DNA of 64,000 nucleotides. Origin: Patescibacteria group bacterium. GTDB taxonomy: Bacteria > Patescibacteriota > Dojkabacteria > JAKAPS01 > JAJZLI01. The notes under the pieces were generated by a model that had not been told where the DNA came from, searched no databases, and saw only the letters and a program-made list of their open reading frames with translations. The stretch lies in the NCBI GenBank assembly GCA_023380695.1, contig JAMCRT010000030.1:3978-67977 (forward strand), written 5' to 3'. The position numbers and the translations under genes are program-made. Of the stretch, positions 24,471 to 59,548 are shown in pieces; positions within the stretch are counted from its first letter, which is position 1, and every line of letters begins with the position of its first letter.

Positions 24471-25349
24471 TCAGACTTCTTTTATGGATACCTTTGTTGT
24501 TTTACTTATTATCTTTGCTTGGAAGTACATAAAGAGACTTTGTACTACCCAATAAATAGATAATGCAGCTGGAATTGGACCTATTATCCCCAATGATATG
24601 ATAACAAGGAACACAGGCATAAAATATAACATCTGTTTAGACATAATAGAACCTATTACTTCAGGATCCATACCTGCTGACTCTTTCTTGCCTTTCTTTC
24701 CCTCTTTAATTTCTAATTTTGTACTTTCTTCCGCTATTTTTTCTTTAGTTGAAGGAAGCATTGCTTTTGTCACAAGATATTGAGAATAGCCTACTAACAA
24801 TGACAATACTATATATGGTATAGCTACTAAAGTAAAAATGTGCATTTCACTTGCATCCTTACTAATGTTACCAATAAGGAAAAAATTTAAATTATAGTGA
24901 TATGAAGCGGGATACTTCAAAAATGGAATATACATAATCTTATTTATAAAAGATGCGCTGTGTCCTGAAATCATTAAAATAGCCTCATATATAGCCCAAA
25001 GAAATGGTAATTGCACTATCAGAGACAAACAACTCCCATATGGACTTACCCCCTCTTCTTTGAATAACTTCATTTGTTCTTCTCTTAATTTCATAAGATC
25101 AGATTTATATTTTTTCTGTATTTCTTTCAATTTAGGCTGAACTTTTTGCATTTTGATAGAAGAAAGTATCTGAGATTTCAAAGTAGGCCATAGTAATATT
25201 CTTATAAGAATAGTTAGTATTATTATAGAAACACCAAAATTATTCCCCGCAATTTTATAAAAAAGAATAAATAAATTTAAAATTGGATGAAAAAAAATTG
25301 TATTCCAAAAAAATTGTATGTAATGCCAAATACTTATAAAAAAATTCAT
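24471..25349 (-). CDS. yidC: Membrane protein insertase YidC/Oxa1 (short form)
   Basis: ...GVSIIILTILIRILLWPL...QKVQPKLKEIQKKYK...SPYGSCLSLIVQLPFLWAIY. It lies downstream of rnpA. Confidence 0.9.
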   Translation of the reverse strand: MNFFISIWHYIQFFWNTIFFHPILNLFILFYKIAGNNFGVSIIILTILIRILLWPTLKSQILSSIKMQKVQPKLKEIQKKYKSDLMKLREEQMKLFKEEGVSPYGSCLSLIVQLPFLWAIYEAILMISGHSASFINKIMYIPFLKYPASYHYNLNFFLIGNISKDASEMHIFTLVAIPYIVLSLLVGYSQYLVTKAMLPSTKEKIAEESTKLEIKEGKKGKKESAGMDPEVIGSIMSKQMLYFMPVFLVIISLGIIGPIPAALSIYWVVQSLFMYFQAKIISKTTKVSIKEV

Positions 25350-25687
25350 AATTTATCTACCTTTTTTAAAATATTTATTATATTTTCCTTTATATCCTCA
25401 AAAGTTATTTCCTTCCACTGATCTTTAAGATTATGATTTACGAGGAAAATAAAATCAAATCCTGTTTTTATTTCAGAAAGATTTTCTCTTATAACAAACC
25501 TAAATCTCCTTTTTACCTTATTTCTAAGATGAGCCTTTCCTAATTTTTTTCGTATAACAAACCCAAATCTTGAGTGTTTCAAACTATTCTCTTTGTAGAA
25601 AAGAATAAAATATGGATTTGATATTTTTTGTTTTCCTTTGTAAATATTATCAAATCCATGTCTCAATCTATTTTTAGATGGAAGCAT
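25346..25687 (-). CDS. rnpA: Ribonuclease P protein component
   Basis: LPSKNRLRHGFDNIYKGK...FGFVIRKKLGKAHLRNKVKRRFR. Between rpmH and yidC. Confidence 0.85.
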   Translation of the reverse strand: MLPSKNRLRHGFDNIYKGKQKISNPYFILFYKENSLKHSRFGFVIRKKLGKAHLRNKVKRRFRFVIRENLSEIKTGFDFIFLVNHNLKDQWKEITFEDIKENIINILKKVDKL

Positions 25688-25694
25688 GATAAAT

Positions 25695-25877
25695 TTATCT
25701 TATCTTATTTCTAGGTTTCTTTCCAATCTTTCTATATACATCAGAAACTGTTAAGTTATGCCTTCCCTTTGCTCTTCTTCTTTTTAGAATATTTTGACCA
25801 CCATTACTAGACATTCTAGATAAAAATCCTCTTTTCCTCAATGTCTTTAATTTTTTAGGTTGATAAGTTCTTTTCAT
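25695..25877 (-). CDS. rpmH: 50S ribosomal protein L34, with a basic C-terminal extension of about 15 aa
   Basis: [44 protein letters not shown]. Confidence 0.85.
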
Positions 25878-25944
25878 AACAGTAATAGATTATACATTAT
25901 ATAAAAAATTTGAGCAATACAATGTATGTGACCCATGCAACATA

Positions 25945-27216: not shown

Positions 27217-28992
27217 TAGTACACACACATATTGGACTTTAGGTGTGAATTTAAAATAAAATTTATAAAACTTTTAAAAAGATTATCATAAGAACTATCA
27301 AACAAGACTTTTTCAGCACTATTATTTAATTGGAAAAGACCCGGGCTACGACTACAGCCTGTACAATACTTAATCGTGTCAAAATCGTTTGTACCTATAC
27401 ATAATCGTTCCATGAAATACTTATGGTCTAGAAAACAATGTGTCAACAAAATTGTTATTCGTAATAACAGTAAACGTATTTTCAGGGTACAATGCATTAA
27501 ACTCATTAGGCAATTTGGCTTGCTTTTCCTTCCACTTAAACTCAAAAGCATTTACCTTCCCACTATACTCTTCAACAAGATCAATTTCTTTTTGGCTATA
27601 ACTACGCCAGAAAAAATAGTTTGGTTTATATTCTCCATATTCATTTGATTTTATTCTTTCAGTCACACAAAAGTTTTCCCACAATGCACCTACATCATTA
27701 CGTAAATCCAATTCATTAAAATTTCTAATAAGACTGTTGCGCAACCCAAGGTCTATGAAATATATTTTGCGTAGTTTTCCTACTTCGTTGCGCGGATTTC
27801 TTTTCAAGGCTGGAAGACGATAAATAACGAAAGTCTGCTCCAACAGAAAGATATATCTCTCAATAGTTTTGATATCTACCTCCAATAGGTTTGACAGTTC
27901 ACTAAGACTAACCTCATTTCCTAATTGTAGGGCCAAAGCTTGAAGCAGTTTGGTTAATAAAGGAGCCTTCTTGAGATTTTCATATTTCAATATGTCTTTA
28001 AATAAATAATTGGAACTTAGATCTGTAAGTGCATCAACGGCTTCACTGTCTGACATATTACATATCATTGGATATGAACCAAATATAAGCATCCTCTTCA
28101 TGACCTGATCTGTGACTAACCTGTCACCTTGAGTAATTTCTACAAATGAGAGTGGCTCTAAATGAAAAGTTCTTGATCTTCCAGTCAATGGCTCACTAAT
28201 TTTATTAGCAAGATCAAAACTAGAGCTCCCTGTCGCAATAATTTGCATTTCAGGATAATTTTCCACAAGAAGTTTTAAGGTGATCCCAATATTTTCTATT
28301 CTTTGAGCCTCATCAATTACCACAAGCTCGTAATCTCCTATAAAATTTTTTAATTCCATAGAACTTCTATTTGTCAGATTAGCGACCACACTTGGTTCAT
28401 CTCCATTCAAATATCGACCTTTTTTCGAAGATACCTCTAAAATTTTTTTGCTGAGAACAGTCTTTCCAACCTGGCGCGCACCATACAAAATGATAACTTT
28501 CCCTTTATAGAGATGCTTTTCAATATTATCTTGTAGCATTCGATGAAATATCATAACTAAATTATAGTAAATTGATAGACACAAGTCAACCAATTATATA
28601 TAAATTGGTAGACTTTATGTAAATAGTGCTTATTATTACTATCATCTCCTAAGTTTCTCTTAATTTAAGATATATGATATAGCAGTATTGGTTTAAGGGA
28701 TAAATTGGATATAATTTCTGGGCTGTCCAACTGGATACAATAAAAGGTGGCAAAATAATGTACTGGAGAATATATTATGTTAAAAGTAAGAACTATTAAA
28801 ACAGAGTTTTAGACAAAGCTCATAAAGAAAGCCATATTTTATATTATACTGGTAGGTGAATTAACAAACAGAAAATTTACTAAACGTCCGAAATTCCCAT
28901 ATTCTTATGTATTTTATAAATTGTTGAAAATTTACTAATTGGGCAAGTTAGGAAATATTAACCTAAATATATCAACCCTCTATAGACGACAC
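27217..28992. mobile_element. Inserted cassette of about 1.8 kb, flanked by 37-bp direct repeats, carrying a COG1373 AAA+ ATPase
   Basis: It sits between convergent rpe and zwf. The flanking repeats equal the rpe 3' end. Repeat copy B carries CAA>TAA, so it reads NVLYG*. Confidence 0.45.
27421..28593 (-). CDS. COG1373-type AAA+ ATPase (DUF4143-like), second paralog
   Basis: ILYGARQVGKTVLSKKIL is the Walker A motif. VVIDEAQRI is the Walker B motif. Confidence 0.7.
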   Translation of the reverse strand: MVDLCLSIYYNLVMIFHRMLQDNIEKHLYKGKVIILYGARQVGKTVLSKKILEVSSKKGRYLNGDEPSVVANLTNRSSMELKNFIGDYELVVIDEAQRIENIGITLKLLVENYPEMQIIATGSSSFDLANKISEPLTGRSRTFHLEPLSFVEITQGDRLVTDQVMKRMLIFGSYPMICNMSDSEAVDALTDLSSNYLFKDILKYENLKKAPLLTKLLQALALQLGNEVSLSELSNLLEVDIKTIERYIFLLEQTFVIYRLPALKRNPRNEVGKLRKIYFIDLGLRNSLIRNFNELDLRNDVGALWENFCVTERIKSNEYGEYKPNYFFWRSYSQKEIDLVEEYSGKVNAFEFKWKEKQAKLPNEFNALYPENTFTVITNNNFVDTLFSRP

Positions 28993-31856: not shown

Positions 31857-32282
31857 TTACATAAATGGATTTATAACATTAATTTCACTAAATTTTTTAA
31901 ATACTTTTTCATCAGCAGTATACACCGTGTTAACATTGTTTGTAATCATTGTAGCCACAAGATATGTATCAAAAATCTCTGCATTGTTTACCTTTTTCTG
32001 TTTTAGTAACAACAACAATAACCCTATTGTTTGAGAATTGGGGCTTATAACTGTGAAATTATCAGTGACACTGTATACTTTCAGAACCTTTAATGCATCT
32101 TCATGTATAACTGGATATTCTATACGCCTCTTGTCTGTAATTACGGAATATAATTCAAGAAGGTTTTGCTGTGCTATACAAATGTTGTCTTCCATTTCAT
32201 AAAGTGCTCGAGCTTTTTCATAAAAAGTAGAGTGCGTGTTATAGGCATAAACTAAGATATTTGTATCAAAAAGCACCCTCAT
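31857..32282 (-). CDS. vapC: PIN-domain toxin
   Basis: MRVLFDTNILVYAY... Confidence 0.75.
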   Translation of the reverse strand: MRVLFDTNILVYAYNTHSTFYEKARALYEMEDNICIAQQNLLELYSVITDKRRIEYPVIHEDALKVLKVYSVTDNFTVISPNSQTIGLLLLLLKQKKVNNAEIFDTYLVATMITNNVNTVYTADEKVFKKFSEINVINPFM

Positions 32283-32517
32283 AAATATCCTTTCGTTTTA
32301 ATGAACTTATTTTGCCAAGATTCTTACTTGGTAATATTATAGTTTTTTTTCTCTTTACCATTAAACTTTTTTGTTCTGCGCTATCCTTACTTAAAAAATA
32401 TTCCATCGCAATTCGTATAGAATTATTAAAAGACATCTTGGTTTCTCTTGCCAAACTCTTGTACTCGACTACAAGAACTTTAGGTATTCTAATTGTTGTT
32501 TTTATATTTTGATCCAT
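32266..32517 (-). CDS. vapB: Ribbon-helix-helix (CopG/VapB-like) antitoxin. Start taken at the internal Met MDQNIK.
   Basis: TIRIPKVLVVEYKSLARETKMSFNNSIRIAMEYFL is an RHH fold. It overlaps vapC by 17 nt. Confidence 0.6.
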   Translation of the reverse strand: MDQNIKTTIRIPKVLVVEYKSLARETKMSFNNSIRIAMEYFLSKDSAEQKSLMVKRKKTIILPSKNLGKISSLKRKDIYEGAF

Positions 32518-32688
32518 ATTAAATATACTAACACAAAGACACGGTGCCGTCAAGTTGATAACTGATGACGGAAATGAATTTTTATTACAAATACAATATA
32601 CATTGACACAATTAGACATGTATACCATATGGTCATGGATAGTATAACCCAAGATAACATAGTATATACACCAGAATAAGTATCTCAA

Positions 32689-32910
32689 ATGCTACAAGTG
32701 AGCACTAATACCATATATTCACTAATAAAGAAAGGTGATATTGTCGCTAAAAAATTTGGAAGTGTGTATAGAATTCTAAAAGGTTTCATTTTCTTTATTT
32801 TTAGTGGAATGGATTACGATATTTATTTAAAAGAAAGAGAGGATTATAAAAATATAGATAAAGTAGAGAGAGAACTATCTATGATTAGAAACTCTAGTAA
32901 AATTTCGTGA
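32689..32910 (+). CDS. Excisionase-family (HTH_17 / MerR-like) DNA-binding protein
   Basis: VSTNTIYSLIKKGDIVAKKFGSVYRI. Confidence 0.55.
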   Translation: MLQVSTNTIYSLIKKGDIVAKKFGSVYRILKGFIFFIFSGMDYDIYLKEREDYKNIDKVERELSMIRNSSKIS

Positions 32911-32974
32911 AAATTTAGATTCTGATGTTATCATTTCATCCTTTATTTCATCCACTGGTGCTTCATATTATCTA

Positions 32975-33013
32975 GTAATGTGACTGGCGAATTAGAAAAA
33001 GGCAGTCACATTA
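32975..33013. repeat. 28-nt motif, copy 2. It is embedded in a palindrome AATGTGACTG-N16-CAGTCACATT.
   Basis: taatgtgactggcgaattagaaaaaggcagtcacatta. Confidence 0.55.
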
Positions 33014-33144
33014 TTAACATTCTTTTCTATTAATATCTAATTCTCTTTAAATATAAACAAAATTATAGATTCTCTGCGTCTGAATTTTGACAAAATGTAT
33101 ATTTATTATATATAATCTGCTTTATTTTAAAATATATATAAAAT

Positions 33145-33852
33145 ATGCAAAATTTTGAAAATGGAACTTCTTTATATGTTATAGAGGATACAAAGATACC
33201 TTTACCATTCATAGATATTGAGTTAAATAATATTATCTCTAATAAAAATTATTCCCTAGAAATAAAAGAGTCTAGAATTGGGGACTTATTGGGCAAAGTT
33301 CTAGAACAAATAGGTAATGAAATTAATAATGACTTAACTGAAATAGATATAGATCCATTACTTCCTATAATACAAACAATGGACAAATTTCAAAAAGAAA
33401 CAGTAGGATTACAAAATGACAATATATATCTCTTTAATCTCTTAAAATCTCAGATAATAAAGGATTACTATGAAAAGAGTCTCCCGATATCTGGCAATTG
33501 GGAAGATCAATTTCAGGGCAAAGACGATCTAAGTATCAACTTAAATGAAGTCACAAATATGGTTGAGTCTTTTTTTGTATTCATAAAAGAGTTTACTGAT
33601 AAGTTAGATGTACACAAAGATAGAGAAGGGTATAAGTTTATTACAGCAGAAACTATTACTGTATTCTTAAAATTTTATCAAGTTACAAATCTTTGGGAAA
33701 TTTTTAAATCTCATAATTATTACGATAGAAATAACCTAAAATTACAAATTGTATGCCTTACTAAAGATATAGACTCTATTTTTAGAAAAAATTTTGGAAA
33801 ACCCACTGTATCTATTTTTAGAGCATTCCTAAAACAAAGAATTATGCAATAA
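33145..33852 (+). CDS. Hypothetical protein
   Basis: Intact 235 aa ORF with no recognisable family. Confidence 0.4.
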   Translation: MQNFENGTSLYVIEDTKIPLPFIDIELNNIISNKNYSLEIKESRIGDLLGKVLEQIGNEINNDLTEIDIDPLLPIIQTMDKFQKETVGLQNDNIYLFNLLKSQIIKDYYEKSLPISGNWEDQFQGKDDLSINLNEVTNMVESFFVFIKEFTDKLDVHKDREGYKFITAETITVFLKFYQVTNLWEIFKSHNYYDRNNLKLQIVCLTKDIDSIFRKNFGKPTVSIFRAFLKQRIMQ

Positions 33853-33855
33853 AAC

Positions 33856-34518
33856 CTATACTATAAATTCTTCTCCTGAATCTTTCCAATCTTCAAGAAA
33901 TTTTTCTAACCCAGCATCAGTTAATGGGTGATTATACATTTCTATTATAAATTGATACGGAGATGTAATTATATCTACACCCAACAATGCAGCTCTCATA
34001 ATGTGTTCTAGTGATCTTACAGATGCAAATAAGACTTGAGTTTAGGAATGCTCTAAAAATAGAATTTTAACTATATCCTCAACTACTGTCACCCCTTCCA
34101 TGCTAATATCATCTAACCTTCCAACAAATGGAGATACAAAATATGCTCCTGCATTTGCCGAAAGTACTGCCTGCATAGCAGAAAAAACTAATGTTACATT
34201 CACTCTAATACCTTGCTCTGTTAATATTTTACATGCTTTTATCCCATCTCTTGTACATGGAACCTTTACTACAACCCTTTCATCTAAAAGGGAGAGGGCT
34301 TTTCCTTGAGTAACCATTGTTTCTGCATCGGTTGCAATAACTTCAAGATTAATAATTTTATCTTTGGATAAAATTTCTCTTATCTCCTCTACTAACTGCT
34401 TAAAAGTCTTTCCTGTTTTGGATGCAAGAGTAGGGTTAGTGGTAATACCAGAAATTATACCAAGCTCTTCTAATTCTTGTATTTCTTTTGTGTCTGCACT
34501 ATCTAAAAATATCTTCAT
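33856..34518 (-). pseudogene. tal: Transaldolase (Fsa/TalC-type, about 220 aa) interrupted by a single in-frame TAA at 34042-34044
   Basis: N-terminus MKIFLDSADTKEIQELEELGIISGITTNP... Then ...VVEDIVKILFLEHS*TQVLFASVRSLEHIMRAALLGVDIITSPYQFIIEMYNHPLTDAGLEKFLEDWKDSGEEFIV*. The sequence after the stop remains in frame and is strongly transaldolase-like. Confidence 0.8.
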
Positions 34519-36126: not shown

Positions 36127-36553
36127 TTATGACTTACCAAAAAACATGTTTATCATACTATGAATTTCACTCTCAGTAGGTATATAAGGCCTTATATACC
36201 CATAATTTAAATACCAATCTTTAGAAAACCTATCTACAATTGCAGAGTCAGGCGAAGGCAGAGACTCTATCTTAAATGTTTTTTTTGACCATACTTTTTT
36301 TAAGAATATATACCTTTGCGCTATGTGGATAAGGATATTCAGAAGACTTAGCTAAACTATTATATAAATCTACCCTAAAAATAATTTTTCTTTTCTCTCT
36401 TGATTGTATAACAATAACTGAATTGGAATTCACGTCCGAAATAGACTTTTCCCCCTCATCTGCCATCGTAGATAGATTTTCAAATAAATCTTTTAATACT
36501 TCATTTGAAGGATAATTGTTTTCTTCTTGTCCTACATCTGTTTCAAGGTTCAT
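36127..36553 (-). pseudogene. Frameshifted paralog of the downstream hypothetical gene
   Basis: The 93 aa ORF (36272..36553) matches the N-terminus of the 145 aa neighbour. The C-terminal homology (...IESLPSPDSAIVDRFSKDWYLNYGYIRPYIPTESEIHSMINMFFGKS*) continues in another frame down to 36127. Confidence 0.5.
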
Positions 36554-43752: not shown

Positions 43753-44846
43753 TTATATTCTCTCATCTTGGAAAATATCTTGAGCTATTTCCTTTATTTA
43801 TAATATCGTTTATTACTACACTAATTATTACACCTCTCATTGGTATAATATCTAAAAGATTTAAGATTTATGACAACCCTCCTACTCTGAGAAATGATCC
43901 TACCGCAAAAAGAAGAATCCATAATGTAAAAAAATTAAGACTAGGGGGAATAGCTATAATTATTCCTTTTGTTATTTTAACTCTTTTAAATCTTCCTCTT
44001 ACAAAAAACCTTATTATTTTTATAATATGTATATTAATACTTTTAACTGTAGGTATTATTGATGATATATTTGATATACCTGCAAAATACCAATTATTGT
44101 TTCAAATAATAGTAGGCCTTATTACTGTACTTTCTGGTATTGATATAAACTATATATCAAAACCTCTTGGGGGAATATTCTTTTTCAATCAATTTCCAGT
44201 AAATATATTTGGAAATACAGTATATCTCTTATCTGCATTTATTACTTTTATTTGGATACTCTTTATAATTAATGCCATAAAATGGATGGCAGGAACAGAT
44301 GGTCTTGCTGAGGGTAACGTATCTATTGCTGCAATTATCATTGCACTTCTTTCTATAAGATTCTTTACACATGATACAGCTGTAATGGGGTTCATATTTT
44401 CAGGATTAATGCTTGGCTTTCTCTTTTATAATTTTTATCCATCTAAAATATTCTCTGGTTCATCAGGAAAAAGTGTTTACGGATATATAATTGCAATTCT
44501 TGCTATATATTCAGGAGCAAAACTTGCATCAACTATAATTGTTTTATCTATCCCCATAATAGATGCAATATATGTTATCTATAAAAGAATAAGGGAAGAA
44601 AAGCCAAAAAGTATTTCTGCCCTTATCAAAATTAATGACAAAAGACATCTTCATTATAAATTATTAGGGCTTGGATATAATCAAAGGCAGGTAGCATTAA
44701 TTGAATATATTTTTACTATAATAATAGGGATAGTAGCTCTAATTGTGACAGGATTTCATAAAGCTATAATACTCGCAGTCATTCTTCTTATAATAATGCT
44801 ATTTATTTTTACAGTAAATAAAAAAAGTAAAGTTAAAAACATATAA
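43749..44846 (+). CDS. MraY/WecA-family glycosyltransferase 4 (polyprenyl-phosphate N-acetylhexosamine-1-phosphate transferase)
   Basis: About 10 TM helices. VGIIDDIFDIPAKYQLLFQI is the DDxxD motif of the family. Confidence 0.75.
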   Translation: MIIFSHLGKYLELFPLFIISFITTLIITPLIGIISKRFKIYDNPPTLRNDPTAKRRIHNVKKLRLGGIAIIIPFVILTLLNLPLTKNLIIFIICILILLTVGIIDDIFDIPAKYQLLFQIIVGLITVLSGIDINYISKPLGGIFFFNQFPVNIFGNTVYLLSAFITFIWILFIINAIKWMAGTDGLAEGNVSIAAIIIALLSIRFFTHDTAVMGFIFSGLMLGFLFYNFYPSKIFSGSSGKSVYGYIIAILAIYSGAKLASTIIVLSIPIIDAIYVIYKRIREEKPKSISALIKINDKRHLHYKLLGLGYNQRQVALIEYIFTIIIGIVALIVTGFHKAIILAVILLIIMLFIFTVNKKSKVKNI

Positions 44847-44885
44847 CTTTAATGAAAATTTAATATAGTATGATATAATTTAGTA

Positions 44886-45245
44886 ATGATAAAAAACAAA
44901 GAAGAGATAACAGAATATTTATCTTCAATTCCACCTTATTGTGAAAAATGTGGAACAATGTATAACAAAGATAAGGTTGAAGTTATTGATAAAAATCAAA
45001 ATATGACAATTATTTACATAATGTGTGAAAATTGTAAAACAAAAAATGTCTTCTATGTAGTAAAACCTATGAACTTTGTTAGTAGGGCAAATTTAATAGT
45101 AGACCTTGATATGGAAGAAATAAAAAAATTTGCAGGATCAAGAAAAATAGACTCTAATGATATATTAAATGTCTTTGATCTTTTATCCACTAAGAAAGCT
45201 AAAAACTCAAAGGATTTTTTAAAAATTATTAATAGTAATGTTTAA
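44886..45245 (+). CDS. Zinc-ribbon hypothetical protein
   Basis: CEKCG...CENCK pair. Confidence 0.35.
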   Translation: MIKNKEEITEYLSSIPPYCEKCGTMYNKDKVEVIDKNQNMTIIYIMCENCKTKNVFYVVKPMNFVSRANLIVDLDMEEIKKFAGSRKIDSNDILNVFDLLSTKKAKNSKDFLKIINSNV

Positions 45246-45504
45246 AAAAATATCTGTAAATAAAATATCCTTAATACAAAATGAAATAGAAATAAAAAAA
45301 ATATTAAACAGATATTTTTTAAAACACCTTAAAGAAGATTTTGATGAATTTATTATATTTAAAAATTTTAGTAATAACACCTTAAGCCTTATAATTAAAG
45401 AACCAACACTTGCTCAATATATAAATCTTGATAAAAAAAATATATTAAATATTCTTAATAAAAAATTTGAAATTTCTGATATAAAAATTAAAGTTGGAAA
45501 TTAA
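45238..45504 (+). CDS. DUF721 (DciA-like) small protein. Tentative.
   Basis: Its size and C-terminal pattern (...LSLIIKEPTLAQYINLDKKNILNILNKKF...IKIKVG) fit DUF721. It sits next to dnaN. Confidence 0.25.
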   Translation: MFKKISVNKISLIQNEIEIKKILNRYFLKHLKEDFDEFIIFKNFSNNTLSLIIKEPTLAQYINLDKKNILNILNKKFEISDIKIKVGN

Positions 45505-46638
45505 TTATCTCTCATATAATGGCATTATTAAATATGTATAATTACCAAGGTTTTTATCTATAATTTTAGATACTTTTCTAGATTCTGAACTGTTTAATTC
45601 AATTGAAATTTTTTCACCATCGCTGTGGTTTAAAAAATCCATTATATAATTTGCATTAAAATTAACACTTATATCTTTACCTTCAATTTTTGTTTTTATA
45701 GATGAATTTAGATCTCCAACTTCTTTTAATCCAGAATTAAATTCTACTTTATTTTCAATTGAATTAAACAGTTCAGAATCTATAGATATTTCTTTAAATT
45801 TAAAAGGTGTTGAAAGTTTTAAAATATTTTTTAAGTCCTCCCTTTTAATTTCAAATGATGTTGAATAGAATTCTGGAAATATTTTTTTGTAATCTGGATA
45901 TTTTCCTTGTATAATTCTTGATATAAATTTTATATTTTCTATTTCAAAAAGTATTTGATTTCCAGAAATCATATATATATACATAGATACATTATCTTCA
46001 AAATTTTTAGTTTTTATAATATCTGAAATATTATCAAGAGCTTCTTTTGAAATAACTAGATTGTCTATAGAAGATTTTATATCTTCGCTTTCTATTGATA
46101 TACTGGCTAATCTAAAACCATTAATTCCAATAAAGTTTATATTTTTTTCGTCAAATTCCATTAAAACACCTGTTAAAATAGGTCTTGCTTTATCTTTGGA
46201 TGTTGCAAAAGATACTTTATCTATAGCAAAAGATAAAGCATTTGGATTTATTTTTATAAAATAATCTGTATCCTTGTCTCTATCAGGAATATCTGGATAT
46301 TCATCTGTTGGAATTGTATTTAAACTAATTTCATTTTTTTTGTCTTTTATATAAAGAGTGTTGTCTTGTAATAATATATTTATAATACTAGATTTTAAAT
46401 TTGCTATTATTTCGTAGAAATTTTTTAAATTTATTGTGCATTCACCTTTTTCTATAACCTCTATACCTACAATAGTAATTGCACTCTGTTCTAAATTTGT
46501 ACTTTTAATTACTAGTTTTTTCCCATCCACTAAAAGTAGTGCATTATTTAAAATAGGAATAGATGTTCTAACAGGAACTGTTTTTATATTTAAACTTAAA
46601 GCCTCAAGTAAGTTTTCTCTTTTTATTCTAATATTCAT
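45505..46638 (-). CDS. dnaN: DNA polymerase III beta sliding clamp
   Basis: MNIRIKRENLLEALSLNIKTVPVRTSIPILNNALLLV. Three-domain length. Downstream of dnaA. Confidence 0.9.
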   Translation of the reverse strand: MNIRIKRENLLEALSLNIKTVPVRTSIPILNNALLLVDGKKLVIKSTNLEQSAITIVGIEVIEKGECTINLKNFYEIIANLKSSIINILLQDNTLYIKDKKNEISLNTIPTDEYPDIPDRDKDTDYFIKINPNALSFAIDKVSFATSKDKARPILTGVLMEFDEKNINFIGINGFRLASISIESEDIKSSIDNLVISKEALDNISDIIKTKNFEDNVSMYIYMISGNQILFEIENIKFISRIIQGKYPDYKKIFPEFYSTSFEIKREDLKNILKLSTPFKFKEISIDSELFNSIENKVEFNSGLKEVGDLNSSIKTKIEGKDISVNFNANYIMDFLNHSDGEKISIELNSSESRKVSKIIDKNLGNYTYLIMPLYER

Positions 46639-46917
46639 AATATATTATATATGTAAGTATTATTATGTATTGTTTATAACTCAAAAATTTCTATATATTT
46701 ATTATAGTTACACTTCTAATCTATGTGCAATACATGTTCATAATATAAATTTATCAAAAATACTACAAACAATTAATAATTTAAAATTAATACATTAATT
46801 TAACTTTAAATACAATGTGTATAAAATTAAATTTTTGTGTATTTAATTTTATAACAATAATTGTATTAATTAAAATTATACTACTTCAAAGATATTTATA
46901 AACAATTTATAAACACC
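46639..46917. promoter_or_regulatory. AT-rich dnaA-dnaN intergenic region. Candidate DNA-unwinding element and second oriC half.
   Basis: About 88% A+T. Degenerate box TGTGTATAA at 46816-46824. Tandem ATTTATAAACA x2 at 46893-46915. Confidence 0.4.
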
Positions 46918-48252
46918 CTATTGTAAAGAACTTCGTATTTCATAAATTTGATTTTTTAGAGCATAATCATCATTTATCATTTTTTCTATTTTATCTACTG
47001 CATACATTACTGTTGTATGATCTTTTCTTTTTAAAAGACTTGCTACATCTGTATAGGGAAGATTTAAATCTACTCTTAAAAGATACATAGCTACCTGTCT
47101 TGGCATAACCACTTTATTTGTTCTTCTTTCTCCCCTTATTTCTTTTATTGATATACCAAATTTTTCACATATTGTATTTATAACATCTTGGGGTTTTATT
47201 CTTTTTATAGTTTTTTTTATCTGTATTCCTAAAATATCTTGTATTTCACTAAATCCCAGTTTTTTTTGTAAAGAATTTTGTATTGCTTCTATTTTTGTTA
47301 AAATTCCTTCAAGTTCTCTTACATTGGATCCAAAATTCTCAGATATAAAATTTATTATATCTTTATCAAATGTTATGTTTTTTTCTTCACATTTTTTATT
47401 TAAAATTGCAGTTTTTAGTTCTATATCTGGAACTCCAATGTCAGCAACCATTCCACCTTCAAATCTAGATACTAATCTTTCTTCTAAATTTTCTATATCT
47501 CTTGGGTGTCTGTCTGAGGCTAATATTATTTGCTTATTTGCTTGATGAAGAGAATTAAATGTGTGGAAAAACTCTTCTTGAGTTCCTTTTTTACCAGATA
47601 TAAATTGTATATCATCAATTATTAAAACATCTTTATCTCTGTATTTTTTCCTAAATTTATCTGAAGAACCATTCTTAATAGACTCTATTAGTTCTCCTAG
47701 AAATGTCTCTGAAGATAAATAAACTACAGAATAACCCTTATTCTTATCTTCTATGGCATTTCCTATGGCTTGTAGTAAGTGGGTTTTTCCAAGACCAACA
47801 CCTCCAAATATAAAGAGAGGGTTGTATATCATTCCAGGTTTCTCAACTACTGCAATAGAAGCTGCATGTGCAAGTCTGTTTGAGGAACCGACAACAAAAT
47901 TAGAGAATAGGTATTTTTTATTTAGATTTGAGGTTTGTTTTTTATCTGTATTGTCTGTTTCTTTTGTATATTCAAATATTGGAGATATGTCATCATCTTC
48001 TAGTTTTTGTATAATTGAAAAATTGATATCAATGGGTTCTCCTGAGGCATCTTGAAGTGCATTTCTTACAGTATTTAAATAGTTGTTTTGAATATAGTCT
48101 ACTATAAATGAATTCTGACATTCTATATTTGCAACCCCATCTTTAATTTCTTTTAAATTTAATTTTGAAAACCAAACTTTAAAACTCTTTTCAGGAACCT
48201 TCAGTTGTATTTTGTCAGTTGCTATTTTCCAAACAGAGTTGATGTTGTCCAT
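46918..48252 (-). CDS. dnaA: Chromosomal replication initiator DnaA
   Basis: LFIFGGVGLGKTHLLQAIGN is the Walker A motif. The C-terminal HTH block ...DHTTVMYAVDKIE is present. Confidence 0.95.
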   Translation of the reverse strand: MDNINSVWKIATDKIQLKVPEKSFKVWFSKLNLKEIKDGVANIECQNSFIVDYIQNNYLNTVRNALQDASGEPIDINFSIIQKLEDDDISPIFEYTKETDNTDKKQTSNLNKKYLFSNFVVGSSNRLAHAASIAVVEKPGMIYNPLFIFGGVGLGKTHLLQAIGNAIEDKNKGYSVVYLSSETFLGELIESIKNGSSDKFRKKYRDKDVLIIDDIQFISGKKGTQEEFFHTFNSLHQANKQIILASDRHPRDIENLEERLVSRFEGGMVADIGVPDIELKTAILNKKCEEKNITFDKDIINFISENFGSNVRELEGILTKIEAIQNSLQKKLGFSEIQDILGIQIKKTIKRIKPQDVINTICEKFGISIKEIRGERRTNKVVMPRQVAMYLLRVDLNLPYTDVASLLKRKDHTTVMYAVDKIEKMINDDYALKNQIYEIRSSLQ

Positions 48253-48324
48253 AAATGAAGTAAATCAAAATTATTAATATTAAAAATTTTTTGGGACAAT
48301 TTAGTGATTTTTATAATAACAAAT

Positions 48325-48333
48325 TGTGGATAA
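48325..48333. promoter_or_regulatory. Perfect DnaA box (TGTGGATAA = reverse complement of TTATCCACA) in the dnaA upstream region
   Basis: Exact 9-mer in ...aacaaattgtggataactttt..., about 70 bp upstream of the dnaA start. Confidence 0.6.
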
Positions 48334-48456
48334 CTTTTCAATTATTTGATTAAATGTCGTATAATAACAATATATTTTGTATGGCATCTTTATTAAGTGA
48401 ATAAGCACAACCTAGAGTGCAATTATTCAATTAACTGGAGAGATGTCCCCGATTTA

Positions 48457-49101
48457 TTATAAAATGGCATTAACACTATCTGAAGAGTCTTCAAGCTTAG
48501 CTTCATCTATAACTTTATTTAAGTGAGTTTTTGTCATAGTTTTTAATTTTTTTGAAGGTATTTTCTCTACCCAGTTGAACAACCCGTTATAATCAAAATT
48601 TGATGGCAATGTTAACTCAACCAATGAAACATGGCGAGACCCAAGAACCGAGAGCAGATAAATTGTGTCGAATAGTGCTTTTTCCTTTGTTGCTAAACGT
48701 ACTCCATTTGTTTCAATAAATCCTCCATAGAGTTCTTTTGTAATATGATAAATGTGGAAAGTACCTAATGCAGTAGGTATTTTTTGAGCACGATCTAAAG
48801 ATATAACATGGATTTCTTTGGGAATTTGTTCAATCATATCATGCCTTGATAAGGCTGTCCAAAAAGATCCATAGGCACTATATGGAGCGGTAAGATATGG
48901 GGCAACAATAAGTGGATCCCTTATTGTGCTAATTGCCCACAATCCCCTTTTTATTTTTGTAACAACTCCAGAGTCTACTAGGGTTAACATAGTCTGGGAT
49001 GCAGCTGGTAGGGTTTTTTTTAAAACTAAAGCTACCTCAGTAGTTGTGACTATCGGTTTTTTAACTTGCGCTAGACGACCCAACGACATTATAGAATTCA
49101 T
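48457..49101 (-). CDS. AbiEi-like antitoxin/transcriptional regulator (COG5340-type winged-HTH N-terminus)
   Basis: KKPIVTTTEVALVLKKTLPAASQTMLTLVDSGVVTKIKRGLWAI is the AbiEi_4-type N-terminal domain. TAATG overlap with the upstream gene. Confidence 0.65.
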   Translation of the reverse strand: MNSIMSLGRLAQVKKPIVTTTEVALVLKKTLPAASQTMLTLVDSGVVTKIKRGLWAISTIRDPLIVAPYLTAPYSAYGSFWTALSRHDMIEQIPKEIHVISLDRAQKIPTALGTFHIYHITKELYGGFIETNGVRLATKEKALFDTIYLLSVLGSRHVSLVELTLPSNFDYNGLFNWVEKIPSKKLKTMTKTHLNKVIDEAKLEDSSDSVNAIL

Positions 49102-49919
49102 TATTTATCCTCCTTTTGGATTTTGATCTTTTTAATTTTATTAAATTTGTTTGAATTCTTATTTTTATGTATATTATTCATACGATTTATGACAAATTCA
49201 TGCATCCTTTCCCATGACTTTATAGAGTCATATGTTATTCTAAAATCATCTTTTAAAAAAGGGATTACCTGTTCTTTGAAATCTTCATAAGTTAGATTCT
49301 CTACTCTTGATAAGGCCTCTAATATATCTTTCTGTTTTAATATAGTGAGGTGACTTTCTGTTTTTCTGAATAATATCTCTAAATCAAAAATGTCTCTAGC
49401 CTTTGTTTCATTTCTTCTTGCTAGTGCCATAATTTTTTGGTCAATCATTGCATCTAAATTATATCTTTGCAGTAAGTATGGAGTAATGCCATATTGCCCA
49501 ACAATGCTTTCGGGAATATCTATTGTATCAAAACCATAGTCACTATGACGACCAGAAAATTCTATTTTAGTTCTAATTTCAACATCAGAGTTAGTTAAAA
49601 CTAATCCTAATTTCCAGCGATGAGTAGTTGTAGTCTGTTTTGGTTTACTAATATTTACAATGGAAATATTAGCACTATTAAGAGTACTAATAAGTACATT
49701 ACTAACTAAAACCTGACCAACAATTTTTTCTAGCTTTAATCCTTCATCTTTGATTAAATCTAGCTCAATGTCATTAGAATACCTAGGACTATTAAAATAA
49801 TACCTAAGATTAGCACCACCTTTAAGTACGTAATTTTTTGGATTATACTTATAAACCAAAACCGATAAAAATGTTAAATGGAACCGTTCTATAATTTGTG
49901 GTTTTGACGTTTCATTCAT
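49101..49919 (-). CDS. AbiEii/AbiGii-family nucleotidyltransferase toxin (DUF1814)
   Basis: YVLKGGANLRYYFNSPRYSNDIELDL is the PF08843 signature (KGGTaL...RfSeDlD). Confidence 0.7.
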   Translation of the reverse strand: MNETSKPQIIERFHLTFLSVLVYKYNPKNYVLKGGANLRYYFNSPRYSNDIELDLIKDEGLKLEKIVGQVLVSNVLISTLNSANISIVNISKPKQTTTTHRWKLGLVLTNSDVEIRTKIEFSGRHSDYGFDTIDIPESIVGQYGITPYLLQRYNLDAMIDQKIMALARRNETKARDIFDLEILFRKTESHLTILKQKDILEALSRVENLTYEDFKEQVIPFLKDDFRITYDSIKSWERMHEFVINRMNNIHKNKNSNKFNKIKKIKIQKEDK

Positions 49920-50001
49920 AATATATAACTGTACTATAAATTAAATTATAATGCAACTATATGTATCGTCAATACGGACTGAAATATGTTACAATTGATT
50001 A

Positions 50002-50559
50002 ATGAAAAACGAAGGAAGATCTTCTATAAAAATACTTTTAATTGCTGTTATAGTAATAGTTATTCTTGCGTTAATTGTGTTTTTAAATATTCAAACAGGA
50101 AGAAAGGCTTATAACGTAATAAATCCTGGTGGTAGGATTAATGATGCAAATAACCGGTCAAGGGTATCTAATATTAAGGCAATATTTGATGCTCTACAGA
50201 TGTATTATTCCAATAATGGTACATACCCTGCAGGTTTAAATAAACTTCCATCTCCCCTTATAACAAATGCCCCATATGGTTATTCTGTTACTGGATCTAC
50301 AATTGGCGTACCTAATTGTGTTTCAGGTTCAGGAACAATACCTAATGCTACAGTTACAGTTTCTTCGTCTTGCACAAAGCTTACAGCAGGCTCTGTGATA
50401 TATAAAGAACTCTCCAAATATATAAGTGTTATTCCAACGGGGAATTACTATTTAGTTGAAAATAGTACAGGAAACAAAGTTGTAGTATTTGCAACTGGAA
50501 TGAGGCAAGGAATAACATCCGATACTGAAGGTTATCCAGTAGCCTGGTATTATAACTAA
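50002..50559 (+). CDS. Pilin paralog with a corrupted prepilin motif (MKNEGRSSIKILL instead of G/FTLIE). Mosaic of the two downstream pilins.
   Basis: The N-terminal 100 nt are most like the 50643 gene. The C-terminal ~280 nt are ~88% identical to the 51242 gene. Confidence 0.55.
   Translation: MKNEGRSSIKILLIAVIVIVILALIVFLNIQTGRKAYNVINPGGRINDANNRSRVSNIKAIFDALQMYYSNNGTYPAGLNKLPSPLITNAPYGYSVTGSTIGVPNCVSGSGTIPNATVTVSSSCTKLTAGSVIYKELSKYISVIPTGNYYLVENSTGNKVVVFATGMRQGITSDTEGYPVAWYYN
50278..50559. repeat. Repeat of about 282 bp shared with 51497-51778 (pilin C-terminal coding segment)
   Basis: Near-identical runs such as ggttattctgttac(t/c)ggatctacaattgg(c/a)gtacctaattgtgtttcaggttcaggaacaatacctaatgctacagttacagtttcttc. 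Confidence 0.8.
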
Positions 50560-54452: not shown

Positions 54453-55109
54453 ATGAATCTTAGAGCATATTATTATCAAAAATATGGAAATGAATTTGAT
54501 GTATTTGCCCATTTTATAAATACAAATGGACTAGAAAGTGACTTTTTGGAGCTGTTTGAAGTATCAAGAGATTATTTGAAAGATAGCCTAGATTTTGTTT
54601 TGTATGATTATTTTTTTTCAGCAATAGATTTTTTTTATTCAAATAGTTCTGATATAAAATATGATTTTCTTTTCTTTAAAAAAATAATAGATGAGAAGTT
54701 TATTGAGTTTTGTATGTCAGATGAAGGGAAAGAGATAATTGATGAGACACATCTATATTTTGGAGGGAAGAGTATAGATATATTCGATGTTATTTATAAT
54801 AGTAGAGAACATTTTGAAAATTCCGATTATCCTTCTGTTGTTACAAATCTAGAATATTTCAAATTTCTAGATAAATATTCAGATATAAAATATATAAAGG
54901 AGGTAAAAATTCTATCAATGCTTAGAACATTTATTGACAATGGGGGTTTTGGTGGAGAATTTTTCTCTCCATTTAGCAAAGATATGCAAAAATATACAGA
55001 CATTATTATAAATGGAGATTTTAGAGAAATGGATCAAAGAGTTTTCAGAAGTAATATTGAAGAATTTAGAGGAATTTTAGAAATAGAAGATATAGGGGTA
55101 TATGAATAA
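54453..55109 (+). CDS. Hypothetical acidic cytoplasmic protein
   Basis: No TM helices. Rich in D/E/F/Y. Confidence 0.35.
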   Translation: MNLRAYYYQKYGNEFDVFAHFINTNGLESDFLELFEVSRDYLKDSLDFVLYDYFFSAIDFFYSNSSDIKYDFLFFKKIIDEKFIEFCMSDEGKEIIDETHLYFGGKSIDIFDVIYNSREHFENSDYPSVVTNLEYFKFLDKYSDIKYIKEVKILSMLRTFIDNGGFGGEFFSPFSKDMQKYTDIIINGDFREMDQRVFRSNIEEFRGILEIEDIGVYE

Positions 55110-57835
55110 TGGATATAAATACTGCGGTTAGCACATATTGTGACCAATACTATACAAAAGAAGCTCTTTTTAGACTTTTGCGTACTAATAAAATAGATCC
55201 TGGTAATATAACAATTTCTGATGACGAGTTAAATATACTAGTCTCTACAGATCAATATGCAAGATTTGTTACACTGCAAATTGCAGAAAATCTTAAAGCA
55301 AGATTTACTGCAAATAAAAGTACTGTATATAGACAGAGATATCTTAACAATGAGGCAGATTTGCTTTCTAAGGCTATAGCCCCATTTATTGCATCAAGCT
55401 ATATTCCAGATGAAAGAAGGGAAGGTAGAGTAACTGGCATTAACGGCGTACATACAAATCTTAGGGCAAGAGGAAAGATGCTGGAGACTGCAATTGACTA
55501 TTGCCTTACAGTGTATCATGAACATGGGTATATGCCTCAATTAGATCAAACTTTGAAGCCTGTAGGAGCTATTCTTCCATCTGGATTTTCTAGAACCGGG
55601 AGTATTGATATAAGAGGGGGGAACGTTGACTCTGTTTCTTTACAAGATTTGCATTCTGTAATAAAGGAAGTCGCATGGAATGCTGGAATAAGGGCTGGAG
55701 TAAAAAGTCTTACAAAAAAACAAAAAATAGCAAGATTACAGTCTAAGTATGGAATATCTTCTGATGAGGCAGAAAGAATTTATGAAAAATTTTTGGAAGA
55801 GTTTAGTTATATAAATATACTTCAAAAAGATAATGGGAAAAGTTATGAGAGACCTTTACTTGAAAGACACGGAATCTACCCAAGACTATATCTTTGGCAA
55901 TATATATTAAATGATACTAGGGCAAAAAGAAAGGGGTCTCTGTTAGATATTCCACATACATGGAGAATGGCAGCAAAAATAGGGTTTACTTCTGCTATAT
56001 CCTCTGGTCGTTGGGGAAATGTGAGAGACGCAAGTGCATATAGAGACACAATTTTTGGAAAGATTTTCGAACACAAAAAAATTGAATATATGGGAGCTGT
56101 GATGAGTTTTGTTGCCAAAGAAGAGGAAAGAACTCTTCCACTAGTTGTAAGTAGAGAGCGTAAAAGAGCTCTTAAAGGAAGAAGGTTGTGGGGTGCTGAT
56201 AAAACTAACCCATATTTATATTCCGACTATATTGACTCTCAAGTTTTCATTAAAGCAAATAGTAAAAAGATTTCTGATAGATTAGAAGAAACGGTGTCTG
56301 AGAGAAATTCTGTATTAAAATGGTTTCAGAAAACAAAAAATGCAAAAGCAATAAAGGCATATAAAAAGCCTCCTAGTAAGAAAAGTAAAAAAAGAAGAGG
56401 ATTAAATTTTTTAGATTTAATTTTGGCTGTTCCTGCATTAGTTATAGATGCAATAACTTTTCTTGCTACAGATGCTGCTTTAGCTGGAGTAAGTGTTTTA
56501 GGCAAATTAGGAATTGTTAGTGAAGATAGTTTTTTAAGAACTATTTTTTCAGGAAATATGGAAGGAGGATTGTGGGATAAAATTCTTCTTTCATGGGATG
56601 GAATGAAATTTACATTTTCTGGGCTTAAATTTGTATTAAAAGATTCAATTGTGGGGGCAATACCTGGGGCTATAGTGGCAGTTCTTTCAGGGAGTCCATT
56701 GCTTGGTGGAATTGTATCTTTTACAATGTTTGCTCCAAAATTCTTTGGAGACTTTACACAAATGTTTGCAATGTCAGGGCCTGCAGGTGATATAGTTACA
56801 AAAATTGTAGAGGATTTTGGAGAAAAAAGTCTTTCAGGTGGAGAGATTTTGGTAAAATCACTTGGTTCTGGGGTATATATTGGGGCCCCTTTATTTATAC
56901 TGTCTGCACTTTTTGGCCTTCCTATAGGAACTGCAGCTCTTATTACTGTGGGGGTTGTTGGGGTAAGGGCAGCAGATCTTGCTATCTTTGAGAAAGTTTT
57001 AAGTCCAAGATTTATCGACGCAGGTGCCATAGATGCATCTACCGCTCAGGAGGTTTTATTTAAATCAAAATATCTTCTTAATTTTGGTACTCCTAGTCTT
57101 GGACTAGTAATTGCAGGTGCCGTGACAGGGAATATACCTTTATTAATTTTAGGTGGTGCAGGGTTTACAACATCTGCAGTTTCAGATTTCTTTAGAAATT
57201 CTTTGTTTGACAGTATGTCTATTAAAAGTGGGACAGATTTAGTTTCTTCTATACATGGAGTTACAACATTTACGTTGGGTCCAGCAATAATAGGTGGAGC
57301 CATAGGCGGTCCAGTGGGAGCAGTAATAGGAGGAGCTATAGGAGGGGTTACTGGTATTAGCTTTACTCTATTAAAGCATACGGTTTCAGATATAGCTATA
57401 GATCCAAGAATGCGGGTATTTGCAGAAGATGAGAGCAAAATGATAGAGGCTCAAAGAAAACTTATTTCATTTAATAGAAATTCTTTTACTACTGATGCCG
57501 AGAGAGGTATTTTAAGAAACTTTGATCCACGAACAGGAGTAGACGGGAATATTGACAGTTTATTGAGAAGTAAAGGATATGATTTTAAAATACAGGATTT
57601 GAGAGATTGGGGATTAAATGATGCTGATATTGAAAGGTTGTTTAGAGGTAGGGCTACTTTCTCAGGGACAGTTATAGGGGTGAAAAATTTTAACTTTGAA
57701 CTGAAATCATTAAAGGAGAATGTAGAAGCAGTAAGGGGAGAATTTTTAAGGGATTTTGTTAATGAAGATAAACTTGCAACGGATTTGGGAAAGGGAACTT
57801 CAGCTACAGCTCCCATATATTCAATTTTTTTGTAA
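55109..57835 (+). CDS. Large (908 aa) protein: soluble N-terminal domain of about 420 aa followed by a glycine-zipper-rich multi-TM region
   Basis: Residues 420-720 are full of GxxxG/AxxxG arrays (e.g. GGAIGGPVGAVIGGAIGGVTG). I recognise no catalytic motif. Confidence 0.45.
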   Translation: MDINTAVSTYCDQYYTKEALFRLLRTNKIDPGNITISDDELNILVSTDQYARFVTLQIAENLKARFTANKSTVYRQRYLNNEADLLSKAIAPFIASSYIPDERREGRVTGINGVHTNLRARGKMLETAIDYCLTVYHEHGYMPQLDQTLKPVGAILPSGFSRTGSIDIRGGNVDSVSLQDLHSVIKEVAWNAGIRAGVKSLTKKQKIARLQSKYGISSDEAERIYEKFLEEFSYINILQKDNGKSYERPLLERHGIYPRLYLWQYILNDTRAKRKGSLLDIPHTWRMAAKIGFTSAISSGRWGNVRDASAYRDTIFGKIFEHKKIEYMGAVMSFVAKEEERTLPLVVSRERKRALKGRRLWGADKTNPYLYSDYIDSQVFIKANSKKISDRLEETVSERNSVLKWFQKTKNAKAIKAYKKPPSKKSKKRRGLNFLDLILAVPALVIDAITFLATDAALAGVSVLGKLGIVSEDSFLRTIFSGNMEGGLWDKILLSWDGMKFTFSGLKFVLKDSIVGAIPGAIVAVLSGSPLLGGIVSFTMFAPKFFGDFTQMFAMSGPAGDIVTKIVEDFGEKSLSGGEILVKSLGSGVYIGAPLFILSALFGLPIGTAALITVGVVGVRAADLAIFEKVLSPRFIDAGAIDASTAQEVLFKSKYLLNFGTPSLGLVIAGAVTGNIPLLILGGAGFTTSAVSDFFRNSLFDSMSIKSGTDLVSSIHGVTTFTLGPAIIGGAIGGPVGAVIGGAIGGVTGISFTLLKHTVSDIAIDPRMRVFAEDESKMIEAQRKLISFNRNSFTTDAERGILRNFDPRTGVDGNIDSLLRSKGYDFKIQDLRDWGLNDADIERLFRGRATFSGTVIGVKNFNFELKSLKENVEAVRGEFLRDFVNEDKLATDLGKGTSATAPIYSIFL

Positions 57836-57865
57836 AGAGAAATTCCAGGATACAGAGACTTAAAG

Positions 57866-59548
57866 TTGGGTGATGCAGGAAATGTAAACGAACTAAGGAA
57901 TATAGATTTATCAAAATATTTTGAAGGGTCTAAGTTTGAATTGAATTTAAAATTTTTAGAGCATCTAACTTTAAGTGATATTGCCAGTGAAGAGGGATTA
58001 GTCGCAAAATTAGCGGATTTGAGGAATGTGGATCCAGGGAGATTAGTTGATATACAAAACTTTTTTACAGAGAGAGGGCTAGAGGGCGGAATAGATTTCA
58101 CTAACAATGCTAGGATTGCAAGAGCTCTTGGCAATGTAAATATAGCAGAGCTTTCAAAGGAAGGGATTTTGAATGATTTAGTAATAAAGTCTGGAGATTT
58201 AACGGGTAGCATAGAGGAGCTAACAGGGTTTGATATAAGGGCTGCAGGTCTTAGTGCAAAAGTTTTGCAAGGAGCTCCTTGGTCAATATCAAAAATTCCT
58301 GCATTAATGAGATCTGATATAAAGCTTCCTATACCTGGAATGACACACGCAACATTTGCAGATATATCTCCAGCTATGAACTCAGGATTTATTGCTGGAA
58401 TTGGGTTAAGTCTTGTTGGTGTATCTCCCGTGATTGCGGTGGCTACAGGTGTGGGAGTTATGGGTGCAAGACTGGTTCTTTCTAGTATTTATAGGAGTCC
58501 AGAGACTAGTTTGCCGATAGGTGCTATTGGAGAAGGAGGCAAAGCATTACTAGAGGCTTTTTCTCACAGTATTAACGTAGGAATGGTTACTTTTGTAGTT
58601 GCAGATCTTTTACTTCATAGTATTCCTGTTGCTGGAATGGTAGCCGCTGGTGTAACTGCAGGATATACAGCATTAAGATTTATATTGAAAGGTAAAGGTT
58701 GGTTTAAAGATGGGGGCGGAATTATTAAGGGTATAGGGGCTGCAAAGGCGGACTTTCTTGGAAAATTAGGTGTTCCAGATTGGGCAATTAAAATTTTTTC
58801 ATTAAAAGGTGCATTTGATGTTGGTATGGTAATACAGCTTGATGACTCTTTGATGAATCCTGCCAAATTTATATCTACACTTGGAACATTCACACTTCCT
58901 GCCATTATAAGTTCATGGGGTACGTTAATTTTTGGGTTTGCAGGAGCATACGGTTTAGCGGCGCTTATACTTGGAGCAGGATTCGGGCTTGCAACGGCCG
59001 GTTTGGGGTTAGGGATACTGGTGGTAGGATATGGAATAGATTGGTTAGTAAAAGGTATTACAGGATTTGATATTGGTCATTGGATTTTAGGTTGGATAAA
59101 AACAGGAATATCTGATGTGTTTTCATGGTTTGGAAATCATGCTATGGCTCCAATCTCTTGGGGTTTTGATATCCTAATTACTATGATGCTTTTAATCTTT
59201 AGGACAGATTTTGATATAGATGAGTTTGTGCGTACAATTGTAACTACCGTTGTTATTGTTGCTATATTTATGAATATTTTTGGAGGGGGTGCTGCTTCAG
59301 GAGGTACAAATAGCAATACTTCAAATATTGCAACAAACAATCATACAAAGTCTGGAACTGTTGGGTTTCTAGTGTCCCCATATTCTGGAAAAATTGTAAA
59401 TATAGAACAAAATAGCAAGATTTTGGCAGATACTGTATATATAAAGAATTCAGAAGGAGAAGTAAGTGTTCATAATATATATAACCCATATTTGTATATT
59501 GGTGAACATATAACTAAAGGTTCATTTATTGGGAATACTGTAAAATGA
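57866..59548 (+). CDS. Glycine-zipper membrane protein (560 aa) with a C-terminal half-M23/lipoyl-like beta domain
   Basis: FGFAGAYGLAALILGAGFGLATAGLGLGILVVGYG. C-terminus YSGKIVNIEQNSKILADTVYIKNSEGEVSVHNIYNPYLYIGEHITKGSFIGNTVK. Confidence 0.45.
   Translation: MGDAGNVNELRNIDLSKYFEGSKFELNLKFLEHLTLSDIASEEGLVAKLADLRNVDPGRLVDIQNFFTERGLEGGIDFTNNARIARALGNVNIAELSKEGILNDLVIKSGDLTGSIEELTGFDIRAAGLSAKVLQGAPWSISKIPALMRSDIKLPIPGMTHATFADISPAMNSGFIAGIGLSLVGVSPVIAVATGVGVMGARLVLSSIYRSPETSLPIGAIGEGGKALLEAFSHSINVGMVTFVVADLLLHSIPVAGMVAAGVTAGYTALRFILKGKGWFKDGGGIIKGIGAAKADFLGKLGVPDWAIKIFSLKGAFDVGMVIQLDDSLMNPAKFISTLGTFTLPAIISSWGTLIFGFAGAYGLAALILGAGFGLATAGLGLGILVVGYGIDWLVKGITGFDIGHWILGWIKTGISDVFSWFGNHAMAPISWGFDILITMMLLIFRTDFDIDEFVRTIVTTVVIVAIFMNIFGGGAASGGTNSNTSNIATNNHTKSGTVGFLVSPYSGKIVNIEQNSKILADTVYIKNSEGEVSVHNIYNPYLYIGEHITKGSFIGNTVK

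Follow-up and report, generated by a model that had tools for sequence, protein, structure and literature searches.

The transaldolase gene and its in-frame stop codon

The stretch of DNA analyzed here, 64,000 nt in length and referred to below as the window, comes from a bacterium of the candidate phyla radiation that is related to Dojkabacteria and has a G+C content of about 29%. The window contains a pentose-phosphate gene cluster in which the gene for a transaldolase (tal) is interrupted by an in-frame TAA codon (Table 1). The start of tal overlaps the stop codon of gnd (ATGA), the gene for the short form of 6-phosphogluconate dehydrogenase. As gnd itself and the neighboring pgi, zwf, rpe and rpiB do not differ from their counterparts in reference contigs, the earlier characterization of zwf, gnd, rpe and rpiB as intact is upheld. 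Translation of tal yields 158 residues, the TAA, and then another 61 in-frame residues up to the natural stop codon. The assignment of the product to the Fsa/TalC type, made in the preliminary description of this locus together with the recognition of the single in-frame TAA, is confirmed by comparison with the PF00923 (TAL_FSA) profile, which the N-terminal part matches with a score of 146.9 bits (E = 1e-42) and the C-terminal part with a score of 26.9 bits (E = 3.7e-6), the cutoff for this fragment alone being 27. The rejoined sequence belongs to PF00923 and is 97% identical to an intact 220-aa protein (P0001), the closest one in the databases. The lysine that forms the Schiff base, K85 in the VVKVP motif, is present in the window, as are the ASxR and HPLTD motifs (A165, S166, R168, H197, L199 and T200), and all these residues occupy invariant columns in the alignment of homologs.

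The translated sequence is identical to P0001 except for residues 153-159, where LFLEHS followed by the stop takes the place of YRNYNYK; thus, in addition to the TAA at codon 159, residues 153-158 are replaced. The YxNYxYK motif is present in relatives down to 65% identity. The residue lost to the stop had been given as Tyr or Lys; Lys is indeed found in most relatives, whereas Tyr occupies the preceding position. Downstream of the TAA, the DNA is 100% identical to that of intact relatives, so that the conservation of the in-frame codons after the stop claimed previously is real, although there are 61 of these codons rather than 54. Truncation would deprive the product of the final two barrel strands, the phosphate-binding ASxR motif and the C-terminal helix, so that the patched tal allele is most probably dead.

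Several additional features of this neighborhood can be mentioned. The block of about 2 kb found between tal and pgi-zwf (31857-33852) contains a PIN toxin gene preceded by a small ORF, an excisionase-like HTH_17 ORF of 73 aa and the 235-aa ORF listed in Table 1, and resembles a small island inserted in the pentose-phosphate gene cluster. A perfect 22-nt palindrome, GGTATATAAGGCCTTATATACC, at 36179-36200 is intergenic, upstream of the cyclase-gnd-tal string, and may serve as an operator or as the stem of a terminator. The Logan contigs L021 (SRR10276728) and L022 (SRR10244963), which come from different runs, stop inside tal at 34126 and 34103, that is, 41-64 nt before the block substitution described below, which may reflect low coverage or a local assembly problem.

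Table 1. Features of the window involved in the three block substitutions (patches).
Feature	Coordinates	Strand	Description
Fsa/TalC-type transaldolase gene (tal)	34518..33856	minus	220 codons, broken at codon 159
In-frame TAA	34044..34042	minus	T is the final altered base of patch 1; AA is shared with wild-type AAA (Lys159)
Patch 1	34044..34062	minus	19 nt CTATTTTTAGAGCATTCCT (gene strand) in place of wild-type TATAGAAACTATAATTATA; 15 mismatches, equal length
Donor arm of patch 1	33811..33833	plus	23 nt TCTATTTTTAGAGCATTCCTAAA; 3' end of the convergent 235-aa ORF; unchanged in all assemblies
Convergent 235-aa ORF	33145..33852	plus	No match in Pfam; holds the donor; kept beside tal in all related contigs
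dnaN (beta sliding clamp)	45505..46638	minus	Patch 3 causes K286I, I287D, I289E, Q290L, T291F
Donor arm of patch 3	45579..45608	plus	Within dnaN
Patch 3	45766..45782	plus	17 nt AAACAGTTCAGAATCTA in place of TGTCTGTATTGATATTT; 11 mismatches, equal length
Gene for 1479-aa protein of unknown function	55109..59548	plus	In the window, split into pieces of 908 and 560 aa
Donor arm of patch 2	56073..56100	plus	1.7 kb upstream, in the same gene
Patch 2	57811..57833	plus	23 nt TCCCATATATTCAATTTTTTTGT in place of AGAGAGTTCTAGAACTTTTCTAG; 13 mismatches, equal length

A block substitution copied from a nearby sequence

When tal is aligned with its counterparts in six independent assemblies that encode P0001, 353 of the 372 aligned bases match the window, and the remaining 19 nt form a single block, denoted patch 1. 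Seven other assemblies of the same clone have AAA (Lys) at the position of the TAA codon, and the wild-type state is also seen in distant homologs. The sequence of patch 1 exactly matches the reverse complement of positions 33812-33830, located approximately 210 nt downstream of the TAA. Together with the flanking matches (T on one side and AAA on the other), it produces a perfect 23-nt inverted repeat (33811-33833 and 34041-34063), the arms of which are separated by a 207-nt segment; at the donor-side junction, 7 of the 12 further positions beyond the core microhomology match as well. This comparison shows the TAA to be the end of a short DNA patch synthesized on the wrong template. A pair of compensating frameshifts was also considered as the source of the seven odd codons and was rejected: neither of the shifted frames yields YRNYNYK, and the block is as long as its wild-type counterpart.

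Two more patches in the same window

Two other block substitutions were found in the window, one in the gene for a large protein of unknown function and the other in dnaN. Patch 2 copies positions 56073-56095, with the resulting repeat arm spanning 57806-57833 (28 nt), and turns a GAA codon into TAA at 57833-57835; the affected gene is intact in the contigs L010 and L011, from ERZ27237490 and SRR25885123, respectively. Patch 3 copies positions 45579-45595 and lengthens a 13-nt inverted repeat that exists in the wild type (45753-45765) to a 30-nt perfect arm (45753-45782). Among 119 homologs of DnaN, position 287, which is Asp in the patched protein, is occupied by V, I or L in 116 and never by a charged residue, and position 289, now Glu, by L, F, I, M or V in 118, again never by a charged residue. 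This pattern of hydrophobicity is what one would expect of residues on the buried side of a beta strand of an essential protein. The score of the C-terminal domain of DnaN with the respective Pfam profile drops from 45.9 to 41.6 bits with patch 3. There is no sign of purifying selection on the patches: two of the three make stop codons and the third one places Asp and Glu in DnaN.

As a separate observation, dnaA and dnaN (45505-48456) lie at the minimum of the cumulative GC skew, which makes this the probable replication origin region; the rpmH-rnpA-yidC genes are located at 24471-25900, 20 kb from dnaA-dnaN.

The features of the three patches are closely similar. In each case, 17-23 nt are replaced base for base and in register, with nothing deleted, and the donor is always located to the left of the patch, at a distance of 208, 1706 and 145 nt for patches 1, 2 and 3, respectively. 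The microhomology that was already in place on the donor side amounts to 3, 5 and 13 nt, in the same order, and the homology at the far (right-hand) junction to 1, 0 and 0 nt. The exact inverted repeats formed by the three patches, of 30, 28 and 23 nt, are longer than all others in the window, the next longest being 18 nt; none of 40 Markov-simulated windows with the same dinucleotide statistics contained an exact inverted repeat of at least 19 nt within 2 kb. Each of these outlier repeats coincides with a block substitution that is private with respect to the public contigs. All three patches, then, have an exact reverse complement nearby, are absent from the ancestral state, which was taken from at least 2 and up to 7 independent assemblies depending on the site, and form a repeat above the background.

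Comparison with other assemblies

Public contigs from several runs and assemblies tile the window from 431 to 64000, and at each position the window was compared with the best-matching contig. Over these 63.5 kb, there is not a single private single-base difference, the patches being the only differences. The wild-type allele was found in 7 independent samples at the site of patch 1, in at least 2 at the site of patch 2 and in 3 at the site of patch 3. The patches themselves were sought in several ways. An exact search of genome and metagenome contig collections with the variant junction produced no match; an allele-neutral flank pattern in the genome contigs and a pattern with the block masked by N in the metagenome contigs were equally unmatched, which implies that these collections do not contain this species at the level of exact match. 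Similarly, the truncated Tal, the variant DnaN and the 908-aa fragment had no match in the contig index. In NCBI nr, a protein from Patescibacteria group bacterium that is encoded on a single 69,469-nt contig (P0245) is 100% identical to the variant DnaN of the window; accordingly, the patches are part of a deposited record rather than a peculiarity of the window. This patched DnaN is annotated in NCBI nr as an ordinary protein.

Template switching as the likely mechanism

At the sequence level, the patches are the recognizable signature of template switching, that is, an inverted templated copy, primed by microhomology, followed by an in-register return. In the four-point model, the 3' end of the growing strand would leave its template, prime on a nearby strand of the same polarity, copy about 20 nt and return. 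Viewed on the plus strand, a 3' end growing from left to right would pair with a same-polarity strand behind it, for which both the nascent strand itself and the other parental one are candidates. The homologies of 13 nt and 5 nt that pre-exist in the wild type cannot be coincidental and point to a 3' end that annealed and primed synthesis. After about 20 nt, the 3' end would anneal again to its own template, with the register held by the upstream part that remained paired, and this would explain why the patches are equal in length to the sequences they replaced. The weak step of this scheme would be the extension from a poorly matched end.

Template switches that conform to the four-point model commonly leave a new perfect inverted repeat (PMC7954356), and the same signature, including the new perfect repeat, characterizes quasipalindrome-associated mutations in bacteria (PMC7202029). 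The present patches resemble these short-range template switches (the four-point model of Loytynoja and Goldman; the quasipalindrome mutations of Ripley and Lovett) in that a cluster of mutations is explained by one nearby reverse-complement copy, an inverted repeat is created or perfected, and there is microhomology at the switch point; patch 3, in particular, is a textbook conversion of a quasipalindrome to a perfect palindrome. Unlike in those cases, however, there are three events in 64 kb without any point changes, one of the donors is 1.7 kb away, and the return homology is only 0-1 nt. The class of events, namely, template-switch patches, is already known, and what is unusual is the density, with three patches in 64 kb.

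Origin of the patches

Which of the explanations initially put forward for the TAA, namely, a very recent nonsense mutation, a sequencing error, and stop-codon read-through or recoding, are compatible with these findings? That the change is recent, or else an error, still holds, and so does the otherwise undecayed state of the gene, with no other private change in the rest of tal and in the 63.5 kb around it. By contrast, the proposed mechanism, a single-nucleotide change, fails. To be sure, only one base distinguishes the TAA from the wild-type AAA, and the downstream frame is intact, as expected of a one-base mutation, a base-call error or programmed read-through. Nevertheless, the actual difference is a 19-nt block with 15 mismatches in which the six codons before the stop also differ: 14 mismatches precede the TAA within the adjacent 18 nt, and all of them are explained by one inverted copy. 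Recoding is further contradicted by the status of TAA as the main terminator in the window, where it terminates 38 of the 56 ORFs of at least 150 aa, by the presence of Lys (AAA) at this site in the relatives, the seven assemblies of the clone included, which leaves no conserved stop, and by the fact that the sole additional unexpected in-frame TAA of the window, at 57833-57835, was created by patch 2. The resemblance to nonsense pseudogenes and recoded genes is limited to the in-frame TAA in an otherwise conserved gene; here, unlike in those systems, a 19-nt templated block accompanies the stop, decay is not seen elsewhere, and the relatives lack the stop. A scan of the 64-kb window for tRNA genes and for Rfam elements detected neither. 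We regard a one-base change or recoding as scarcely credible.

A perfect 23-nt inverted repeat flanking a 207-nt segment that holds the 3' end of tal, with a small HTH_17 gene 0.9 kb away, also brings to mind an invertible segment, that is, an inverton or phase switch controlling tal. None of the other assemblies of the clone, however, contains the repeat, the segment is seen only in the wild-type orientation, there is no recombinase gene nearby, and the two other repeats of the same origin are inside dnaN and the gene for the 1479-aa protein; the probability of such a switch appears to be negligible. A software artifact, whereby assembly, read correction or polishing wrote a reverse complement into the consensus, deserves a little more attention but is still improbable. 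For an assembler, a k-mer and its reverse complement are one object, and equal-length, in-register replacements limited to one record are what such an error might look like. The junction homologies of 0-13 nt, however, are far below any assembly k, and with 0-1 nt at the right-hand junctions, no graph path or alignment could join the sequences; furthermore, we know of no tool with an in-register reverse-complement error mode. Deliberate or blind overwriting of the sequence was considered and rejected as well: the wild type already contains 13 nt and 5 nt of the new repeats, and the dnaN patch is found in NCBI nr.

This leaves template switching, either in a test tube or in a cell, and our preference, by a modest degree, is for the former: the patches probably arose outside the living population, as a record-specific event in vitro, during whole-genome amplification or a similar step. 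Among the chimeras generated by multiple displacement amplification (MDA) with the phi29 polymerase, 85% are inverted, mostly with less than 10 kb between the joined sequences, and of the inverted chimeras within 10 kb, 93.5% show priming complementarity of at least 2 bp, up to 21 bp, with about one chimera junction per 22 kb (PMC1855051, Lasken and Stockwell 2007). The density of patches in the window is one event per 21 kb. The similarity to MDA chimeras thus extends to the inverted orientation, the donor within 10 kb on the same molecule, priming at a complementarity of 3-13 nt and the frequency of about one per 20 kb; the difference is that the published chimeras consist of a single junction with an intervening deletion, whereas each patch has two junctions, with an in-register return after 17-23 nt. 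The DNA behind this record was probably amplified; a weak hint in this direction is that the NCBI names of this record are without the 'MAG:' prefix that neighboring entries carry. Against an origin in vitro, a proofreading polymerase should trim a mismatched 3' end, a patch that won the consensus must have come from an early event or from low coverage, and the identical signature is also produced in vivo at replication forks.

Genuine template-switch mutations at the replication fork, of the quasipalindrome type, either by intra-strand fold-back or across the fork, in which case tal would be a real, very recent pseudogene in that lineage, are possible but, in our assessment, rather unlikely. 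The signature is the classical one, patch 3 perfects a 13-nt quasipalindrome to a 30-nt repeat, and re-annealing of the nascent strand to its own template would naturally bring it back in register. Patescibacteria, moreover, have reduced sets of repair genes. Among the patterns of the four-point model, those that generate inverted repeats accommodate all three patches (PMC7954356). Conversely, a spectrum of three complex events without a single point difference in 63.5 kb is far from any that has been reported for spontaneous mutation, none of the three patches is present in any other assembly, and mutation in a living cell would have put two acidic residues at positions of the essential DnaN that are consistently hydrophobic (116 and 118 of the 119 homologs). 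In addition, the patches share left-to-right polarity and yet flank the probable origin (the GC-skew minimum and dnaA), so that, by this reasoning, neither the leading nor the lagging strand alone can account for all three. An elaborate variant of this scenario, a burst in one lineage of an uncultured Patescibacteria species in which the alteration of a buried strand of the sliding clamp by patch 3 turned DnaN into a template-switch mutator that yielded the other patches, including the knockout of tal, seems to us highly improbable.

Implications

If, as we suspect, the patches originated in vitro, the real transaldolase of this organism would be intact, as it is in every other assembly of the clone, the link to the pentose-phosphate pathway would not be lost in the population, and nothing would be recoded. 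The apparent loss of transaldolase in this bacterium of the candidate phyla radiation is accordingly unfit for use in metabolic reconstruction: with the tal allele of the population intact, no claim can be made that the non-oxidative pentose-phosphate link was lost. By the same token, an in-frame stop in a conserved gene should not be taken as evidence of recoding until the neighboring codons are compared with those of close relatives. The three patches in 64 kb are best read as a quality problem of one deposited genome. Evidently, a deposited genome can hold in-register inverted patches that go unnoticed through assembly and annotation, in this case, with one of them in an essential gene, and such patches can be detected at little cost by scanning for perfect inverted repeats that are private. 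Should the patches have arisen in vivo after all, they would represent an unusually dense natural example of template-switch mutagenesis.

Other features of the window

Positions 43753-45456 form a strain-variable stretch, with a Glycos_transf_4 gene and small ORFs, that resembles a recombined or fast-evolving surface-glycan locus. In this stretch, contig L010 shows about 180 differences from the window, including indels that total about 22 nt near 44903-44933, and it is identical to the window in 45783-64000 apart from patch 2. Farther along, at 50002-51778, there are three tandem genes for prepilin-like proteins (N_methyl), with 84% identity between two segments of about 455 nt and with exact direct repeats of 59 nt (50308/51527) and 35 nt (50468/51687); position 50337 is the exact end point of two short-read contigs that come from different runs. 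Finally, two genes for AAA_14/DUF4143 ATPases (10431-11861 and 27421-28593), together with several PIN-domain and AbiEii genes, make up a toxin- or defense-like set that is dense for a small genome.
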